This document shows positions 11,585 to 64,000 of a stretch of 64,000 bases of DNA, piece by piece. Below the pieces are notes generated by a model, which saw only the letters and a program-made list of their open reading frames with translations, made no database searches and was not told where the DNA came from. The stretch's first letter is position 1; each line of letters starts with the position of its first letter. Source of the stretch: a virus. Made by a program: the position numbers and the translations under genes. The stretch covers positions 6,565 through 70,564 of the IMG/VR virus record IMGVR_UViG_3300045988_105924; one strand, given 5' to 3'.

Positions 11585-11809
11585 ATGATGGTATATGGAA
11601 ACATAACGTGTAATCGCTGTGGCATTACATGGTATGGTCCTAAATGTGGAAAGCTCTATTGTGATGAATGTCGTAAGATAATAAGAAATGAGGCATCCAT
11701 TCGATGCAAGAATAAAAAGAAACATAAACCAACATTTGTTGAGATTGTAAGAATGGCAGATGCTGAAGGATTATCTTACGGTAAGTATTGTTTGAAGTAT
11801 GGAGTTTGA
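11585..11809 (+). CDS. zinc-ribbon protein (CNRC...CDEC)
   Basis: SD gaggtgtaaatt then ATG; two CxxC pairs. Confidence 0.55.
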   Translation: MMVYGNITCNRCGITWYGPKCGKLYCDECRKIIRNEASIRCKNKKKHKPTFVEIVRMADAEGLSYGKYCLKYGV

Positions 11810-12638
11810 GGTGAATATAATAAGCGCAGTTGTTGAAAGAAAAGAAGAACAGATACCTAAATTGATTTATTTTAATCCGAAACCTTCTGTTCCGGCTAAA
11901 AAACGTGGTGTTACAAAAAGTAAGCAGAAGCGTAAGCGTAATATTTCTCCAATTAGAAGCTTGGATGATGTTCAAATGATTTCGGAATATTTTTGGGACA
12001 AGAAGCAGTATCGTAACTGGTGCTTATTTAATGTAGGTATTGCAACTGGTTTACGTGCTAGCGATTTGCTCAAGTTGAAGGTTTCCGATATGTCTTATTG
12101 CCTTTACAATGGAAAGATTGAAGTGGTTGAAGACGCGGGAGTTTGCATTATTGAAGAAAAAACATCTAAATATCGTGAAATTATTCTTACTCCAGAAGCG
12201 AGGGATATTGTTGAAACATACATCAAGATTGCGAAACTTGGATATGATGATTGGATGTTTCCATCTCGACAGGGGAGCTGGAAAAAGTCTTTGAGAACAA
12301 ATGGTGGACATGGGAAAACCGGTATTCTTCATATCGCAGAACCCAAAAAGGCCGGTGATCCTATTGATGTTGATCATTTTGCTCGTATTCTTCGTAACGT
12401 TGGTAAAGATTTAGGTCTTAATTATAAAATTGCATCTCATTCTTGCCGCAAAACGTTTGGTTATCGTGAAATGTGTCTTAATAAGGATGATAATCAGGCA
12501 TTGTCTTGGATTCAGGGTCAGTTGAATCATAGTAGTCAGGACATTACATTACGGTACGTTGGTTTTGATGAGGATAAGGCAAAAGAATATTATAAGAAGA
12601 CTTTTTATGGTGTGAATACACACAGCTTGGAAGACTGA
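11799..12638 (+). CDS. tyrosine site-specific recombinase (XerC/integrase family), internal copy
   Basis: GLRASDLLKL, HSCRKTFG and LRYVG motifs consistent with the R..H..R..Y catalytic core. Confidence 0.7.
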   Translation: MEFEVNIISAVVERKEEQIPKLIYFNPKPSVPAKKRGVTKSKQKRKRNISPIRSLDDVQMISEYFWDKKQYRNWCLFNVGIATGLRASDLLKLKVSDMSYCLYNGKIEVVEDAGVCIIEEKTSKYREIILTPEARDIVETYIKIAKLGYDDWMFPSRQGSWKKSLRTNGGHGKTGILHIAEPKKAGDPIDVDHFARILRNVGKDLGLNYKIASHSCRKTFGYREMCLNKDDNQALSWIQGQLNHSSQDITLRYVGFDEDKAKEYYKKTFYGVNTHSLED

Positions 12639-15955: not shown

Positions 15956-16002
15956 GTGAAAAGGTATGTCTAATAAAAGCTGAGATTTAGGGAGACATAG
16001 TT

Positions 16003-18637: not shown

Positions 18638-19564
18638 ATGCTTACTGAAGAGAAAATCAACGCTTTTGCCGAAAAGTATTCTGATAGAAGCGGTGAGTTT
18701 GTTATATCGACACTTAACCATGTTATGGATTACGAGGCCGAGCGTGGGTATGAGTTGTTTGACTTCACAAAAGATGATTTTGTAAAGATGTTTGCCAAAT
18801 ACAATTGGGTGAATTCAAGTCGGTCGTTCAGAAATGTAAAGTCAATAATTACAGGTTACATCAAAAGTGAGTATCGAGCGAGCATGTATGACTTAGCTGA
18901 ATTCTCGGAGAGCGACGTGAGTTCAGACAATATGTACGAGGACAAGTATTTTGCGTCAGCTGATGAGTTTGTTGATTTCTTGGACAAGTATGAAGAACCA
19001 TATCAGATTCGTATGAACGTGATTGCCGTGCTGTACTGGATTGGTCTTACTTCCGAAGAGGTTTCTAATCTGACAATTAACGATGTTGATTTTGAATCAT
19101 GTACTGTTCTGAATAAGACCGGTGTTGACGCGAGATTGATGAATATCATTAAGCAGTGTTATGAAATGAAACAATACGATGCTCCAAATATGGGAGGATA
19201 CAGAACGTTTTATGTCATAAATGGTGATTACATTCTTCGCAAAACAGAGGATAGAACTGGTGCAGACAGTGATTCAAGAATGTCTACAAATACGATTCAT
19301 AGTTATTTCACGCGCTTGAATGATATTCTCGAAAGAAGATATCATTCAAAGGCTTTAGACCGAAGACATCTGACCAGAAACGGCGAGTATGTCAAGGTTT
19401 ATAACTACTGTAAAACTCATCCAGAATTTAATCTTGCAGAACTTAGTTTCGGAAATGGTAAAGATCCTCTTGCGGACATTATCGGAAGAAAGTGCAGCAA
19501 GGTTGCCTACATTAGTTTCCGGCAAGGATACAAGGGCTGGATCGAATACTTCCACAAAAATTAA
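18638..19564 (+). CDS. hypothetical protein (308 aa)
   Basis: SD aagaaggagtgtgccact then ATG. Confidence 0.55.
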   Translation: MLTEEKINAFAEKYSDRSGEFVISTLNHVMDYEAERGYELFDFTKDDFVKMFAKYNWVNSSRSFRNVKSIITGYIKSEYRASMYDLAEFSESDVSSDNMYEDKYFASADEFVDFLDKYEEPYQIRMNVIAVLYWIGLTSEEVSNLTINDVDFESCTVLNKTGVDARLMNIIKQCYEMKQYDAPNMGGYRTFYVINGDYILRKTEDRTGADSDSRMSTNTIHSYFTRLNDILERRYHSKALDRRHLTRNGEYVKVYNYCKTHPEFNLAELSFGNGKDPLADIIGRKCSKVAYISFRQGYKGWIEYFHKN

Positions 19565-22163: not shown

Positions 22164-22188
22164 CGTTAGAATTTTGAGGTGATTTTTG

Positions 22189-22854
22189 ATGAAAACCTAC
22201 GAAAAAATCGAAACGGTGTTTAATCGTGATATCGAAGGCACTAAAAAGCTGATTATCGGTGATTTTCGTAATGAAACCATTGAGTTCCTACAAAATAATG
22301 AGTGGGAATTTACTGAGAAAGTGGATGGCACGAATGTGCGTGTTTGCTGGGACGGTCATAAAGTCAGCTTTGCCGGACGAACTGAACGTGCCGAACTTCC
22401 TAAGAATTTGGTGGATGCACTAAATGAAATTTTCGGTACTTCTGAAGCAGAGGAATTGTTTGAACAGACTTACGGTGATAAAGAAGTAATCCTCTTTGGA
22501 GAGGGTTATGGTGGCAAAATTCAAGGATGTGGTCATGGATACCGACCTGATGAGTGGTTCATCTTGTTCGATGTCCTGGTTGGTGATAACTACCAGAGTA
22601 GAGAGTGGGTTGAAAAGACTGCTCAGATGTTTGGTATCCAAGTAGTTCCTATTTTGTTTACAGGGACGATTCGAGACGGTATCAAGTTTGTGTGTCAACA
22701 TCCGAAGTCTACGGTTTCGATTGATGACATTTATATGGAAGGTCTGGTTGGTCGTCCAAAGGTTGAGTTGAAAGACCGCAGAGGTAATCGAGTAATTGTC
22801 AAAATCAAGTGGAATGACTTCAAGGATATCGCTGATACGCTTGGTAATGAGTAA
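22189..22854 (+). CDS. ATP-dependent RNA ligase-like nucleotidyltransferase (Rnl2/DRB0094 family, minimal NTase domain)
   Basis: motif I EKVDGTN (KxDGxN), motif III FGEGYGG, motif IV EGLVGRP, motif V KIKW. Confidence 0.65.
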   Translation: MKTYEKIETVFNRDIEGTKKLIIGDFRNETIEFLQNNEWEFTEKVDGTNVRVCWDGHKVSFAGRTERAELPKNLVDALNEIFGTSEAEELFEQTYGDKEVILFGEGYGGKIQGCGHGYRPDEWFILFDVLVGDNYQSREWVEKTAQMFGIQVVPILFTGTIRDGIKFVCQHPKSTVSIDDIYMEGLVGRPKVELKDRRGNRVIVKIKWNDFKDIADTLGNE

Positions 22855-22923: not shown

Positions 22924-23008
22924 GCCAAGGTGCTGCAAATGGGAGACAGGGCGAGCCCAAACCTCGCTGTGGAAACACATGCGGTTTCGAATACCGTCCT
23001 TGGCACCA
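22924..23008 (+). tRNA. tRNA-Leu (anticodon CAA), type II
   Basis: hand-folded cloverleaf: acceptor GCCAAGG/CCTTGGC, 3-bp D stem, anticodon arm GCGAG-CCCAAAC-CTCGC, variable arm TGTG-GAAA-CACA, T arm GCGGT-TTCGAAT-ACCGT, encoded CCA. Confidence 0.75.
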
Positions 23009-23048
23009 GAGCCCGAACGTCCACCTATTAGATATTGGAGGCAAATTC

Positions 23049-23930
23049 ATGAAAAGAATCGACAAATTTACAAAAAAAGAAATTGAGCAAGTTTTTAGAG
23101 AGAGTAAAAGCTTAGATGCTGTTGCAAGAAAACTTGGATATAAAGACAACAGCGGTGGAACTCACTCGGCTTTAAAGAAATATGTTGAAGAGAATAATAT
23201 AGACATATCCCATTTTACTGGGCAAGGCTAGAACAAAGGTAACTTTGATTTGTCAAAATTTACAAAGGGAGTATCTTTTAGCAGTCAGTTAAGGAAAGCC
23301 TTGCTTTACATAAGACCTCATAAATGTGAATGTTGTGGCAATACAGAATAGTTGGGACATGAAATTCCATTGGAGGTTCATCATGTAGATGGAGATAGGC
23401 TTAACAATGAGTTGAGCAACCTACAACTTTTATGTCCAAATTGTCATGCTCAAACAGATAATTACTGCGGAAAAAATATAAGATACAAAGAGGCCGTTCC
23501 AGAAGAAAAGTTGATAGAAGCACTTAAAATATCACCAAATATAAAACAAGCACTTTCTAAAATTGGTATAAATTATTCCGCGAAGAGTTGGTACGACAAA
23601 GCTAAAAGATTGATGGAAGAAAACAATATCGAATTTAGTAAAAAGGAAGTTTCAGTTCCTGTTAAGAAAAGAGAACATAGATGCAGACGATGCTCTGTGT
23701 GTGGCAAACCTTTACAATACAATACAAAAGGAACGTTGTGTAAAGAATGCTATAGGCATTCGCCAGATAGAAGGAATGTTGAATGGCCATCAAAAGAAAC
23801 TTTATTGAATGATATAACAACTATGTCTTTCTTAAAGGTTGGTGAAAAATATGGAGTGACTGATAATGCCGTTAGAAAATGGTGTAGATATTATGGCCTC
23901 CCGGCAACTAGGAAAGAATTAAGAAAATAA
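23049..23930 (+). CDS. HNH homing endonuclease, one 294-codon frame containing two in-frame TAG codons (23229-23231, 23349-23351)
   Basis: single frame 23049..23930; the HNH core PHKCECCGNTE-[TAG]-LGHEIPLEVHHVDGDRLNNELSNLQLLCPNCH is contiguous only if TAG is translated; no frameshift is needed; SD ttggaggcaaattc then ATG. Confidence 0.55.
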
Positions 23931-23936
23931 TACACG

Positions 23937-23962
23937 TGGCGAGATAACTCGCCACATTATAT
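23937..23962 (+). terminator. hairpin GTGGCGAG-ATAA-CTCGCCAC plus A/T tail
   Basis: perfect 8-bp stem downstream of the HNH gene. Confidence 0.55.
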
Positions 23963-24047
23963 GCTACCGTGGTGCAATTGGCGAGACACAGTTGCCTTAA
24001 AAGCAACCGTCCGAGAGGAATTGAGGGATCATACCCCTCCGGTAGCA
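23963..24047 (+). tRNA. tRNA-Leu (anticodon UAA), type II
   Basis: acceptor GCTACCG/CGGTAGC, 3-bp D stem, anticodon arm GTTGC-CTTAAAA-GCAAC, 15-nt variable arm, T arm GAGGG-ATCATAC-CCCTC (atypical T loop). Confidence 0.6.
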
Positions 24048-24053
24048 TCATAT

Positions 24054-24127
24054 CCAGAATGTAGTGTAATGGCAGCACGCTGCGTTTGGGACGCAGAAGA
24101 GCGATTCGAATTCGACATTTTGGACCA
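24054..24127 (+). tRNA. tRNA-Pro-like (anticodon UGG), non-canonical
   Basis: acceptor CCAGAAT/ATTTTGG, anticodon arm CTGCG-TTTGGGA-CGCAG, T loop TTCGAAT, but only 3 Watson-Crick pairs in the T stem and an irregular D arm; CCA encoded. Confidence 0.4.
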
Positions 24128-24150
24128 GTGGAGTATTCCACTTTCTTTTC
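24128..24150 (+). terminator. hairpin GTGGA-GTAT-TCCAC followed by TTTCTTTTC
   Basis: stem-loop plus T-run immediately after the tRNA 3' end. Confidence 0.5.
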
Positions 24151-24223
24151 ATGAATACCTTCCTATTATTCTTGGCTCTCCAAAAAAACGGAGCAGTAGG
24201 ACGCAGCAAGCCAAGTTACATAA

Positions 24224-24313
24224 TGAGGGTTCGCCAAGTGGTAAATGGCATCTGGCTTTGACCCAGACAGCGTGCTTTATAGCCGATCGTCGGTTCGATC
24301 CCGACACCCTCAA
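24224..24313 (+). tRNA. tRNA-Gln-like (anticodon UUG) with an atypical 21-nt extra region
   Basis: acceptor TGAGGGT/ACCCTCA, D arm GCCA..TGGC, anticodon arm TCTGG-CTTTGAC-CCAGA, canonical T arm GTCGG-TTCGATC-CCGAC; a 21-nt variable-position insert is unusual for Gln. Confidence 0.45.
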
Positions 24314-24318
24314 TTTAT

Positions 24319-24407
24319 GGACACGTGATGGAATCGCAGACATGAAAGATTTAGACTCTTTTGCCGTTGATAGCGGTGTGCCCGTTCAAATCGGGTCGTG
24401 TCCACCA
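24319..24407 (+). tRNA. tRNA-Leu (anticodon UAG), type II
   Basis: acceptor GGACACG/CGTGTCC, 3-bp D stem ATG/CAT with long D loop, anticodon arm AAAGA-TTTAGAC-TCTTT, 18-nt variable arm, T arm GCCCG-TTCAAAT-CGGGT, CCA encoded. Confidence 0.6.
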
Positions 24408-24513
24408 TTATCAACTTATGGTTGCGTACCGTTTGTTGATATCCTTTGATTGCCACTATTATTCCCGGCTCGCCAGTGATGGTGCAGTAGTGCTTTGTAA
24501 GCTGGGTTTTCAT

Positions 24514-24588
24514 GCAGCGGTCGTACAACGGCTAGTACATCAGCCTTCCAAGCTGAGGATGAGGTTTCGACTACCTTTCGCTGCTCCA
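24514..24588 (+). tRNA. tRNA-Gly (anticodon UCC)
   Basis: acceptor GCAGCGG/TCGCTGC, D arm GTAC..GTAC, anticodon arm TCAGC-CTTCCAA-GCTGA, T arm GAGGT-TTCGACT-ACCTT, CCA encoded. Confidence 0.75.
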
Positions 24589-24777
24589 ATCTCGTATGGG
24601 TAGGATCTTTGGCGGTCAGATCCGGCCGCGCCTGTGCGAGATACCACCCCGAAAGGGGCGAGATATAGGAAATGTGCATCGCTGTTATTCCTTCCTCGTC
24701 TATATGATATAGATGCAATAGTGTTTTATAAGGAAGGTGCCCAGTTGAATAGTTGCAGCTATTTAACTGGTTTTTAT

Positions 24778-24858
24778 GGGACATTATCTCAATTGGTTAG
24801 AGAACTCAGCTCATAACTGAGCATATGTATCACGGTTCAAGTCCGACATGTCCCACCA
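24778..24858 (+). tRNA. tRNA-Met/fMet-like (anticodon CAU)
   Basis: acceptor GGGACAT/ATGTCCC, D arm TCTC..GAGA, anticodon arm CTCAG-CTCATAA-CTGAG, T loop GGTTCAAGTCC but a weak 3-bp T stem; CCA encoded. Confidence 0.5.
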
Positions 24859-24964
24859 GCCCGAAAGGGCGTACATAAAACCCGCTAGAACTTTTGTTTT
24901 ATAAGCGATGAAATAATATGACGTTAATACGTCTATTATTTTTCGCTAATTTTTAAAGTTCTAG

Positions 24965-36678: not shown

Positions 36679-37437
36679 ATGGCGGTATACATCACGGGTG
36701 ATATTCATGGTGATTTTAATCGGTTTTTAGAATTGGAAAAGTTTTGCCATGAACACAATCTTGGAAAGAATGACTGGATTGTCTGCCTTGGCGATGTCGG
36801 TTTGAACTACTACGGTAAGGATGATCCTCGTGAATGGAGTATCAAGACTATCGCCGCAGATATTCCTGCGAATCTGTTTTGTATTCATGGCAACCACGAA
36901 CGCCGCCCGTCTCGTAAGGATGGTTATAGAACAAAGGAAATCAGTGGAGATATTTGTAGTAAGGTGTGGCATGACTCACATTATCCCAATCAGTATTTCG
37001 CTATTGATGGTGAGGTTTACCAGATTCTTTCCGGCGTAGAGATGTTGAATTGTCTTGTTTGTGGTGGAGCTTATTCTGTGGATAAGTATTATCGACTAGA
37101 GTGGGGATATAATTGGTGGACGGATGAGCAGCCGAATGAGAAGACTAAGAAAAAGATCTGGAATATTACACATGACCATCAAATCGATGATATTGATGTT
37201 ATGCTCACGCATACCTGTCCATTCCGGTTCATTCCAACTGAATTGTTTATCGGTGGTATTGATCAAAGCACAGTGGATCAGTCAACTGAAATATTCTTTG
37301 ATAATATATACGAATGCTATCCTAACGATCGTAAACCATTCTGGTACTTCGGCCATTTTCATGGCAACAAGTATACCGATGACTATGTGATGCTTTTCGA
37401 CGATATTATTAAGTTTGGAAATAAGAGGAAGGAGTAA
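36679..37437 (+). CDS. calcineurin-like metallophosphoesterase
   Basis: GDIHGD, GNHE and GHFH motifs; SD gaggtgaggacgca then ATG. Confidence 0.65.
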   Translation: MAVYITGDIHGDFNRFLELEKFCHEHNLGKNDWIVCLGDVGLNYYGKDDPREWSIKTIAADIPANLFCIHGNHERRPSRKDGYRTKEISGDICSKVWHDSHYPNQYFAIDGEVYQILSGVEMLNCLVCGGAYSVDKYYRLEWGYNWWTDEQPNEKTKKKIWNITHDHQIDDIDVMLTHTCPFRFIPTELFIGGIDQSTVDQSTEIFFDNIYECYPNDRKPFWYFGHFHGNKYTDDYVMLFDDIIKFGNKRKE

Positions 37438-62833: not shown

Positions 62834-64000
62834 ATGATAAGACGTAAAGATAATAATGGCAAAGTTTTAAAAGACGGCGAGAGCCAGAGAAAGGATGGGA
62901 GATACCAATATAGATGGACAAACAAACTTGGAAAACGCTCAATAATATACGCCACTTCACTTAAAGAATTGAGAGAAAAAGAAGCTGAAATCCAAGAAAA
63001 ACTTAATTTGGGTATAACGTCTACTTCAAAAATCACAGTGTACCAATTAGCAAAAAGACATCTCGAAGAAACAAAACTTACTATTAGGCCAAGCAGCTAT
63101 AAAACAAAATCGCAGAATTTGAAAATCTTTCAGAATCACCTAATTGGGGAAATGAATGCAACTGATATTTTAGTGCGCGATGTAAAACAATTTGCACGAG
63201 AATTGGATAACGAAGGATATTGTTATACAACAATCAGAGATGTCATGTCTTTAGCTAGACCGGCATTTCAAGAAATGTTTGATGAGAATATAATTCCTAG
63301 AAATCCATTCGTTTTTAAATTAAATACAGTTGTCAAATGTGACTCAAAAGAAAAAGAAATATTAACAGAAGAGCAGTATCAAAATCTGATCAAGTTCATG
63401 AAATCTAGTCGAGTATATAAAAGGCATGTTGGCATGGTGATGCTTTTGCACGAGACCGGACTTCGAGCAGGAGAATTATGCGGGCTAACAAAAAAGTCAT
63501 TTGATTTTGATAACAACACTGTTACTATATCTCATCAGATGGTGTACGATGGAAAGAGCGGCGGGCTGTATTTAGCACCTACAAAAACAGAAAGTGGGAT
63601 AAGGACTATCCCATTATCTAAAGACGCCATCATTGCTTTTGAAGAAGCGATAAAACAACGTCCGATTGTAAAAGCAGAGAGAATAATAGATGGGCAAGCC
63701 GACTTCTTGTTCATAGCAAAAACTGGAAGGCCCTATACGAATAAAAACCTTGTTAGAATTTTTGAAGGACTAATCAAAGCCTATAATAGTTGCCATGATG
63801 AACCATTGCCTGAAGTCACTGCCCATAGTATGCGCCACGAATATTGTACACGGCTTGTCAAAGCCAAGATGGATGTTAAATCGGTTCAATACCTCATGGG
63901 ACATTCGTCGCCCGATATAACCTTGAAAGTGTATACTCATATCTTAAAAGAAGAGACCGAAGCAGAGGCAATCAAACAGTTTAATAGGATTGTTTCCTAA
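62834..64000 (+). CDS. int: tyrosine integrase (phage integrase family)
   Basis: N-terminal SAM-like/core-binding region; catalytic box LRAGEL, HSMRHEYCTRL and LMGHSSPDITLKVYTH (R-H-R-Y pattern); stop at 63998-64000. Confidence 0.8.
   Translation: MIRRKDNNGKVLKDGESQRKDGRYQYRWTNKLGKRSIIYATSLKELREKEAEIQEKLNLGITSTSKITVYQLAKRHLEETKLTIRPSSYKTKSQNLKIFQNHLIGEMNATDILVRDVKQFARELDNEGYCYTTIRDVMSLARPAFQEMFDENIIPRNPFVFKLNTVVKCDSKEKEILTEEQYQNLIKFMKSSRVYKRHVGMVMLLHETGLRAGELCGLTKKSFDFDNNTVTISHQMVYDGKSGGLYLAPTKTESGIRTIPLSKDAIIAFEEAIKQRPIVKAERIIDGQADFLFIAKTGRPYTNKNLVRIFEGLIKAYNSCHDEPLPEVTAHSMRHEYCTRLVKAKMDVKSVQYLMGHSSPDITLKVYTHILKEETEAEAIKQFNRIVS

Follow-up and report, generated by a model that had tools for sequence, protein, structure and literature searches.

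Amber codons at tryptophan positions in a homing-endonuclease gene of a phage tRNA cluster, and a candidate tryptophan-derived tRNA(CUA) in related gut phages

How can a phage gene that contains in-frame amber (TAG) codons be read, when none of the tRNA genes surrounding it has the matching anticodon? This question is raised by a tRNA cluster in a 64-kb stretch of DNA, hereafter called the window, which corresponds to positions 6,565–70,564 of IMG/VR record IMGVR_UViG_3300045988_105924 (all coordinates below are counted from the window start, unless a relative is named). Seven tRNA genes are arrayed here on one strand, downstream of an RNA ligase gene, and an HNH homing-endonuclease gene with two in-frame TAG codons is placed between the first two of them, tRNA-Leu(CAA) and tRNA-Leu(UAA). 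The first-pass annotation of the window had described the cluster and pointed out the lack of a CUA anticodon, and had reasoned that a suppressor, if amber is decoded at all, must lie elsewhere in the genome or act by a non-standard mechanism. It did not mention that TAG aligns with tryptophan (Trp) instead of glutamine (Gln). We compared the locus with its relatives in IMG/VR (L-numbers such as L001 or L273 are labels of the relative loci or contigs), and we propose that the TAG codons of the HNH gene specify tryptophan, and that the clade reads TAG by means of a Trp-derived tRNA(CUA) encoded outside the window. We put the probability of this proposal at roughly three in four.

In the HNH gene, the in-frame TAG codons are located at 23229–23231, in the motif GQG[TAG]NKG, and at 23349–23351, in the motif CGNTE[TAG]LG. 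In order to see which residues they replace, we tabulated the codons of 97 distinct HNH genes directly from their DNA. The column of the first site (column 61) holds TGG in 51 genes and TAG in 8, and that of the second (column 101), which is an essentially invariant tryptophan, holds TGG in 85 genes and TAG in 8; CAA or CAG occurs in neither column. Relatives with HNH proteins 50–66% identical to that of the window have TAG at the same two positions and carry a third TAG as well, while their genes, about 295 codons long, contain no frameshift, TAA or TGA. The closest database homologues show “Q” at the TAG sites, and this residue is TAG in their DNA, translated with genetic code 15 by the gene caller. 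The same HNH family includes genes of unrelated phages (L158, L164 and L195) in which TAG falls at Gln, Glu and Lys columns, the classical code-15 pattern. These genes therefore serve as a positive control, and indicate that the comparison can tell the two codes apart.

The simplest alternative is that the HNH gene of the window is a dead pseudogene, in which the TAGs are nonsense mutations and nothing decodes them. Homing endonuclease genes often decay, the change from TGG to TAG is the easiest path to a stop codon, only this one gene has in-frame TAG across the 64 kb, and the window encodes no suppressor tRNA. The conservation of both TAGs in the divergent homologues described above, within reading frames that are otherwise intact, argues against decay, and so does the stop codon usage of the window. 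Among its 92 plus-strand open reading frames (ORFs), 47 terminate with TGA and 45 with TAA, while none terminates with TAG; since TAG accounts for 12% of the stop triplets on this strand, about 11 TAG stops would be expected from composition (P ~8e-6). In addition, TAG occurs in essential genes of the same population, such as the terminase gene, and the relatives with TAG-containing HNH genes carry a CUA tRNA wherever the relevant region can be read, as described below. We consider the pseudogene explanation very unlikely. A test of the whole window for recoding, based on ORF length, is uninformative because in-frame TAG is confined to a single gene, and a comparison of TAG with aligned residues over all of the window ORFs was dominated by non-coding frames, so that real genes were used instead.

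Where, then, is the tRNA that would read TAG? No CUA anticodon was detected in the 64-kb window by ARAGORN, by Rfam, by BLAST with the CUA tRNAs of the clade, or by R1, a covariance model of the clade's CUA and Trp tRNAs that was run over all 64 kb with the filters off. The lack of a CUA anticodon noted in the first-pass annotation is thus confirmed for the cluster, and applies equally to the whole window. We walked leftward from the window through its IMG/VR relatives (~130 kb). In these relatives, the genes change strand to the left of the window, and the first 20 kb contain neither a tRNA gene nor a TAG-containing gene. A second tRNA cluster is reached about 24 kb to the left of the window start, and is on the other strand in the closest relative. 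Its genes follow the order Thr, Thr, Asn or Tyr, Ser, Lys, X, Met, and it is located directly upstream of the gene for a 415-amino-acid large terminase (assigned by the PHROG terminase families) and of structural genes. The slot X is filled by either tRNA-Trp(CCA) or tRNA(CUA), and never by both.

When ARAGORN is used alone, slot X of the closest relatives seems to hold neither tRNA. BLAST, together with a motif search, then reveals a tRNA(CUA) in these genomes (records 112321, 094716, 110678, 119437, 107720 and 127311). The genes that ARAGORN misses have a non-canonical T loop, CCCAAAA or CTCGAAA; they score 40 bits with the Rfam tRNA model and fold as a cloverleaf, and they are found at 15967–16041 of L273 and at 28 other loci. 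Because such tRNAs escape ARAGORN, reports of recoded phages with “no suppressor tRNA” may in some cases reflect failed detection. All six genomes that have both a TAG-containing HNH gene and a readable second cluster carry a tRNA(CUA) (112321, 094716, 110678, 086263, 107720 and 127311). The expectation that a suppressor would lie elsewhere in the genome is thereby borne out in the relatives, in which it stands beside the terminase gene. Apart from these genomes, a distant relative whose ligase is 52% identical (L160 3430–8681; IMGVR_UViG_3300045988_109524) has a 76-nt tRNA(CUA) in a large tRNA array, and four ORFs with 4–9 in-frame TAGs each follow directly after it; this phage is heavily amber-recoded.

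Next, we examined the kinship of the two tRNAs that alternate in slot X, in an alignment of eight types of tRNA(CUA) and three of tRNA-Trp(CCA). The acceptor stem is invariant across both, including the G1·U72 pair, and they have in common the G73-CCA end, a similar D arm and the anticodon loop CUC[C/U]AAA. In this alignment, 98.3% of the cells in the stems are paired and 13 of the 21 pairs have changed on both sides, and none of 500 shuffles reached the observed score; the anticodon and T stems are fully compensated. When the CUA types of L303 and L317 are compared with 858 distinct tRNAs, their five nearest neighbours are the Trp tRNAs of the clade, and Trp tRNAs are among the top matches of the remaining CUA types. 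The alignments establish this kinship, and the tRNA(CUA) would accordingly be a derivative of the clade's own tRNA-Trp(CCA), as far as sequence comparison can tell. A Gln-like identity of the long CUA tRNAs of L167 and L219, suggested by a U1–A72 pair, was rejected; the nearest neighbour of the L167 tRNA is its own tRNA-Trp.

If TAG is a sense codon in this clade, how is it distributed beyond the HNH gene? In 80 genomes that cover the second cluster and about 10 kb of late genes, we compared the columns in which at least three genomes have TAG; with one exception, these hold only TGG or TAG. They are W58 and W65 of the large terminase, of which W65 immediately precedes the Walker A motif ACSRNFGKS, as well as W73 and W93 of a 345-amino-acid late protein, and W90 and W72 of two further proteins. 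The exception is codon 4 of the 345-amino-acid protein, where eight genomes have TAG beside CCG in others; the true start of the protein most likely lies downstream of this column. Each change from CAG, TAT or GAG to TAG is confined to a single genome, in most cases one that lacks the tRNA.

The use of TAG follows the tRNA in slot X. TAG is present at Trp columns in 38 of the 47 genomes with tRNA(CUA), in none of the 11 with tRNA-Trp(CCA), and in 1 of the 17 with neither (Fisher p = 1.7e-11, a value that overstates the independence of the data, because the genomes are related and the terminase gene is near the tRNA gene). The lone genome with late-gene TAG and no CUA tRNA is L367, in which the CUA tRNA gene is interrupted. 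The TAG codons occur alongside several different types of the CUA tRNA, and at different sites. In L367 (6778–6813), the 5′ 36 nt of the CUA tRNA are intact up to CTCTA and the sequence then diverges, reflecting either an interruption or an insertion in the anticodon loop. In L273 (17954–18348; IMGVR_UViG_3300045988_112321), about 395 nt that are missing in the relatives split the terminase gene after residue 104, and may be an intron or another insertion.

Could TAG nevertheless be read as glutamine, as in code 15, with the TAGs at Trp sites representing tolerated Trp-to-Gln replacements? For phages, no amber reassignment other than TAG to Gln has been reported (10.1101/2021.08.26.457843; PMC9523058), and CUA-anticodon tRNAs are good substrates of the glutaminyl-tRNA synthetase in E. 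coli (10.1101/2025.10.30.685624). Gene callers already print Q at the TAG sites. The TAG columns that recur in several genomes of the clade, however, lack CAA and CAG, and outside the codon-4 column contain just TGG and TAG. The affected residues are tryptophans that are invariant in the 51–85 HNH genes with the standard code, and one of those in the terminase immediately precedes the Walker A motif. Moreover, the Gln pattern is visible in other phages of the same HNH family and is therefore detectable, and the suppressor is a paralogue of tRNA-Trp that alternates with tRNA-Trp itself. We regard the glutamine reading of this clade as unlikely.

Another possibility is that one of the seven cluster tRNAs reads TAG by non-standard pairing, the candidates being tRNA-Leu(CAA), which has C33, and the long-armed tRNA-Gln(UUG). 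The oddities of both tRNAs are conserved, eukaryotic tRNA-Leu(CAA) and tRNA-Gln are weak natural amber suppressors, and one TAG column of the HNH gene is Leu in the window. On the other side, the residue aligned with TAG is Trp and neither Leu nor Gln, there is a dedicated CUA tRNA from whose presence TAG use can be predicted, and no TAG was seen in the late genes of genomes that have the same first cluster and carry tRNA-Trp(CCA) in place of tRNA(CUA). Decoding by a cluster tRNA is thus highly improbable, and we conclude that the seven tRNAs do not take part in TAG decoding.

We therefore return to the proposal that TAG is read as tryptophan by the Trp-derived tRNA(CUA), against which several points have to be set. 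The E. coli suppressor su+7 (supU) is likewise a tRNA-Trp whose anticodon has undergone this one change, from CCA to CUA, and it is charged mainly with glutamine, whereas the codon-substitution pattern here indicates tryptophan. In E. coli, 28 of the 29 phage tRNA(CUA) tested were charged with glutamine (10.1101/2025.10.30.685624). The HNH gene of one relative (P0001) has a TAG at a conserved Gln, a point that also favours code 15, and three single-genome changes from CAG to TAG were found among the late genes. The T loop CCCAAAA in the tRNA(CUA) of the closest relatives could impair its function. The suppressor is not inside the window, and its presence in the window genome is extrapolated from the six relatives, because no IMG/VR contig is identical to the window: when we looked for the window's own contig by means of the insertion in its tRNA-Gln, ten contigs matched with 93–98% identity and none was identical. 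The charged amino acid is read from the alignments and the ancestry of the tRNA. A search for the host by means of the integrase gave a best match of 29% identity in GTDB genomes, with no close relative among the GTDB representative genomes. The relatedness of the genomes noted for the Fisher test has to be counted here as well. With these reservations, we infer that the window genome itself carries tRNA(CUA) and that this tRNA is charged with Trp.

In a wider sense, it is probable that this recombining clade of ~130-kb temperate gut phages has a natural amber-to-Trp code that is early and still polymorphic, in which TAG has been purged as a stop codon and TGG has flipped to TAG only in the genomes with a CUA tRNA. 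The reading that needs the fewest assumptions has four elements. The clade would have eliminated TAG from its stops, and one tRNA-Trp gene would have gained a CUA anticodon. TGG would have turned into TAG at a few sites in the genes for the terminase, structural proteins and homing endonuclease. The suppressor stands at the head of the late module, and its expression would be needed to complete those proteins. If TAG makes sense only through the suppressor, then full-length HNH endonuclease, the large terminase and some structural proteins would all require suppressor expression, and the suppressor could act as a licence for late expression. This logic is the one proposed for the code-15 phages, applied here to tryptophan.

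How does this arrangement compare with the recoded phages described so far? Amber-recoded gut phages that use code 15 (TAG to Gln) include crAss-like, Lak, Garnet and Topaz phages (Borges et al., 10.1101/2021.08.26.457843; Peters et al., PMC9523058). As in these phages, TAG is avoided as a stop, is found in late genes and not in integrase or replication genes, and is accompanied by a phage-encoded tRNA(CUA) beside the late module, for which the proposed role is to restrain lytic functions. Unlike them, the present clade has TAG aligned with Trp and a suppressor that is paralogous to tRNA-Trp. Its TAG codons are also very sparse, only a handful of genes having any, with one to a few in each, and the state is polymorphic within one recombining population, in both the tRNA (CCA or CUA) and the codons (TGG or TAG). 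Opal-recoded phages that use code 4 (TGA to Trp) include Agate, Jade and some crAss-like phages (10.1101/2021.08.26.457843; PMC9523058). They resemble the code proposed for the present clade in that a stop codon is given to Trp by a phage tRNA derived from tRNA-Trp. They differ in that reading TGA needs the change of C34 to U34, while reading TAG needs that of C35 to U35, and in that TGA is an ordinary and frequent stop here, used by about half of the window ORFs. In the phage literature that we searched, only TAG to Gln and TGA to Trp were found, with no description of amber-to-Trp, and the amber-to-Trp variant of the code suggested by our alignments appears to be undescribed.

If the proposal holds, this reassignment is one listed for no phage or bacterium, and would be an exception to the rule that in phages TAG is given only to Gln and TGA only to Trp (10.1101/2021.08.26.457843). 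It would represent the live capture of a stop codon, which may license late genes and selfish endonucleases. The allelic CCA and CUA tRNAs, the few polymorphic TGG/TAG sites and the absence of TAG stops would be the signs of a codon reassignment in progress, so that codon-capture and ambiguous-intermediate ideas could be tested on natural variants. Gene callers that apply code 15 would have put a wrong residue (Q for W) into public protein databases. In addition, a CUA tRNA that inserts Trp and evades charging with Gln would be of interest for genetic-code expansion.

Table 1. Features of the tRNA cluster and its surroundings in the window.
Feature	Position	Strand	Description and evidence
RNA ligase	22186–22854	+	222 amino acids; Pfam RNA_ligase PF09414, 60.8 bits; directly upstream of the cluster
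tRNA-Leu(CAA)	22924–23008	+	85 nt, class II, encoded ACCA; ARAGORN, R1
HNH homing-endonuclease gene	23049–23930	+	293 codons, two in-frame TAG; Pfam HNH and HNH_3
tRNA-Leu(UAA)	23962–24049	+	class II; ARAGORN, Rfam 44.2 bits
tRNA-Pro(UGG)	24054–24127	+	74 nt, shortened T stem, encoded ACCA; ARAGORN, Rfam 45.2 bits
tRNA-Gln(UUG)	24224–24313	+	90 nt, A73, without encoded CCA; ARAGORN, Rfam 52.8 bits
tRNA-Leu(UAG)	24319–24407	+	89 nt, class II, encoded ACCA; ARAGORN, Rfam 46.0 bits
tRNA-Gly(UCC)	24514–24588	+	75 nt, encoded UCCA; ARAGORN, Rfam 55.5 bits
Structured RNA element	24589–24646	+	58 nt, directly after the CCA of tRNA-Gly; ends with ACCA
CAU-anticodon tRNA	24778–24858	+	81 nt, encoded ACCA; ARAGORN, Rfam 46.2 bits
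Calcineurin-type phosphoesterase	36679–37437		adjoins the DNA polymerase gene

The features of the cluster are collected in Table 1. Run over the whole window, ARAGORN reports seven tRNA genes and no more; all of them are on the plus strand, at the coordinates given in the first-pass annotation, and the Rfam tRNA model (RF00005, with sensitive filters and a family cut-off of 29 bits) reports six of them at 44.2–55.5 bits. Rfam gives no report for the tRNA-Leu(CAA) gene, which R1 finds at 19.4 bits. The statement that most of the genes encode their CCA end is also correct: five of the seven do, the exceptions being tRNA-Gln and tRNA-Leu(UAA). The latter ends with AUCA (24046–24049), while otherwise identical genes in L353–L357 end with ACCA, and the difference is thus a point change.

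Several of these tRNAs have unusual structures. The anticodon loop of tRNA-Leu(CAA) (22956–22962) reads CCCAAAC, so that position 33 is C, where U is near-universal. Several relatives have an identical gene, and a second, divergent sequence type among them also has C33, which makes the loop a conserved feature. The length of tRNA-Gln(UUG) is due to an insertion of about 17 nt in the variable region (~24269–24285), which in the minimum-energy fold adds a variable-arm hairpin to the cloverleaf. An exact 31-mer across the insertion is found in 10 IMG/VR contigs, and the Gln tRNAs of other relatives are 71–74 nt long. Variable-region insertions of 12–17 nt recur in the normally class I tRNAs of the clade: besides the tRNA-Gln of the window, they are seen in an 88-nt tRNA-Thr(UGU) (L273 15015–15102; 73–76 nt elsewhere) and a 92-nt tRNA-Met (L356). 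In the CAU-anticodon tRNA, the variable region is enlarged and the T stem is weak. It had been described as Met-like; the CAU anticodon is present, and the identity with tRNA-Met is less certain. Its slot alternates with tRNA-Ile(UAU) in the relatives, where a 77-nt version has a similar 5′ half, and for this reason it may be a lysidine-type tRNA-Ile2 instead. The conservation of these oddities—C33, the long tRNA-Gln, the weak T stem of the CAU tRNA and the short T stem of tRNA-Pro—argues that they are compatible with function.

In the closest relatives, the slots of the cluster follow the order Leu(CAA), [HNH], Leu(UAA), Pro, Gln, Leu(UAG), Gly, and then either Met(CAU) or Gly and Ile(UAU). 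Every slot is conserved among the IMG/VR relatives, and one slot often has the same anticodon on very different, fully compensated tRNA bodies, which argues for function and for a cassette-like exchange between phages.

What are the seven tRNAs for? They read the codons UUG, UUA/UUG, CCN, CAA, CUN, GGN and AUG (or AUA), which are minor in the window's own genes (UUA 11%, CUA 8%, CAA 27%, GGA 24%). A supply of codons by simple match to the usage of the early genes was considered, and is unsupported because the decoded codons are minor. Together with the neighbouring ligase, the seven tRNAs may supply the late genes, or may provide insurance against the depletion or cleavage of host tRNAs and against tRNA-targeting defences. 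The tRNA cluster as such is ordinary for a large phage.

The HNH endonuclease had been recognized in the first-pass annotation as embedded in the cluster, and Pfam agrees, with 25.0 bits for PF01844 (cut-off 21.4) and 24.8 bits for PF13392 (cut-off 24.8). The gene has a GGAGG sequence 8 nt upstream of its ATG. The protein has 697 homologues with the invariant pattern CxxC...HH...N...CxxCH, and the residues C93, C96, H111, N119/N124, C129, C132 and H133 are invariant in 31 homologues. At the site between Leu(CAA) and Leu(UAA), the gene is present in the window, L001, L002, L016, L151, L353, L359 and L360, and is missing from L003, L352 and L358, while L004 has it between Leu(UAG) and Gly instead. 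As judged by this presence or absence at one site and by the relocation in L004, the HNH gene behaves as that of a free-standing mobile homing endonuclease.

The ligase gene had been assigned to the Rnl2 family. An RNA ligase gene is indeed located directly upstream of the cluster, and its PF09414 match spans profile positions 2–171 of 171, with motif I (KxDGxN) present as EKVDGTN at residues 44–50. The equivalence to Rnl2 did not hold: the NCBIfam Rnl2 model (TIGR02307) gives 31.6 bits, as compared to its equivalog cut-off of 197, and matches profile positions 21–224 of 326. The Rnl2 C-terminal domain is absent; T4 Rnl2 requires this domain for nick sealing. Because the Rnl2 score is below the cut-off and the match covers the N-terminal two-thirds of the profile, the protein is, on the evidence of these profiles, a stand-alone Rnl2-like nucleotidyltransferase domain, and not an Rnl2 equivalent. 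A comparison with the PDB sequences gave no match. On the other flank of the cluster, where the first-pass annotation had placed methyltransferase genes, the downstream methyltransferase is a sub-threshold Pfam match only, and the ligase side of that description stands.

The region resembles the tRNA regions of T4, which contains segB, small stable RNAs and the Pnkp/Rnl1 repair pathway, and of T5, which contains HNH endonucleases. The likeness lies in the tight one-strand tRNA array, the free-standing homing endonuclease between the tRNA genes, the nearby RNA ligase and the extra small structured RNAs inside the array. Unlike T4 and T5, the ligase here is a domain of 222 amino acids without the Rnl1 or Rnl2 C-terminal domain, the endonuclease gene has amber codons, and the phage appears to be temperate. 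Also unlike them, no Pnkp-like domain (polynucleotide kinase-phosphatase) was found among the 44 window proteins scanned, 29 of them against Pfam; the scanned proteins include no aminoacyl-tRNA synthetase or release factor.

The structured RNA element that begins directly after tRNA-Gly is conserved; it folds with −26.9 kcal/mol (z = −2.9), and is followed by a CCCC-GAAA-GGGG hairpin (24647–24672). Compensatory changes in the relatives support two helices, which would together make a pseudoknot. No Rfam family matches the element. Theta (minimal HDV-like) ribozymes are located directly 3′ of gut-phage tRNAs, and their cleavage forms the tRNA 3′ end (Kienbeck et al., PMC10879173). The element is like them in starting exactly after the tRNA CCA, and unlike them in having no HDV-like fit and no Rfam match and in ending with ACCA, like a tRNA. 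We tried the double pseudoknot of an HDV-like or theta ribozyme on the element, and obtained no convincing fit. The element could be a processing element (a ribozyme or an RNase P substrate) or a reduced tRNA-like RNA. A similar arrangement, ACCA with GCCC-GAAA-GGGC, occurs past the last tRNA at 24855–24869. In addition, the motif CTATTATTC(TT/CC)GGCTC is repeated at 24163–24182, 24456–24475 and 24933–24947. The first two copies precede the tRNA genes for Gln and Gly by about 60 nt and each open a hairpin, and the third lies past the cluster; these repeats may be promoters or processing signals.

Taken as a whole, the window covers the part of a large phage genome that is devoted to replication and nucleotide metabolism. 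Its products include a PolIII-alpha-type DNA polymerase, a DnaB-like helicase, RecJ-like and exonuclease V-like proteins, a DNA ligase, NrdD, ThyX, a dUTPase and a DNA methylase, and the integrase gene terminates on its final base. INPHARED contains no complete relatives, just short fragments of human-faecal origin with 80–84% identity, while IMG/VR holds well over 100 related contigs of ~110–150 kb each. Every related contig ends 0–300 bp past the integrase gene (window 62834–64000; L125–L149), a pattern that points to prophage boundaries or to a fixed break in the assembly. A few relatives (contigs 088805, 087097 and 094674) are circularly permuted, which suggests a circular form. The phage is probably a temperate human-gut phage of ~125–140 kb. 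Besides the integrase gene, the window contains two more tyrosine-recombinase-like genes, at 11799–12638 and 18638–19564.

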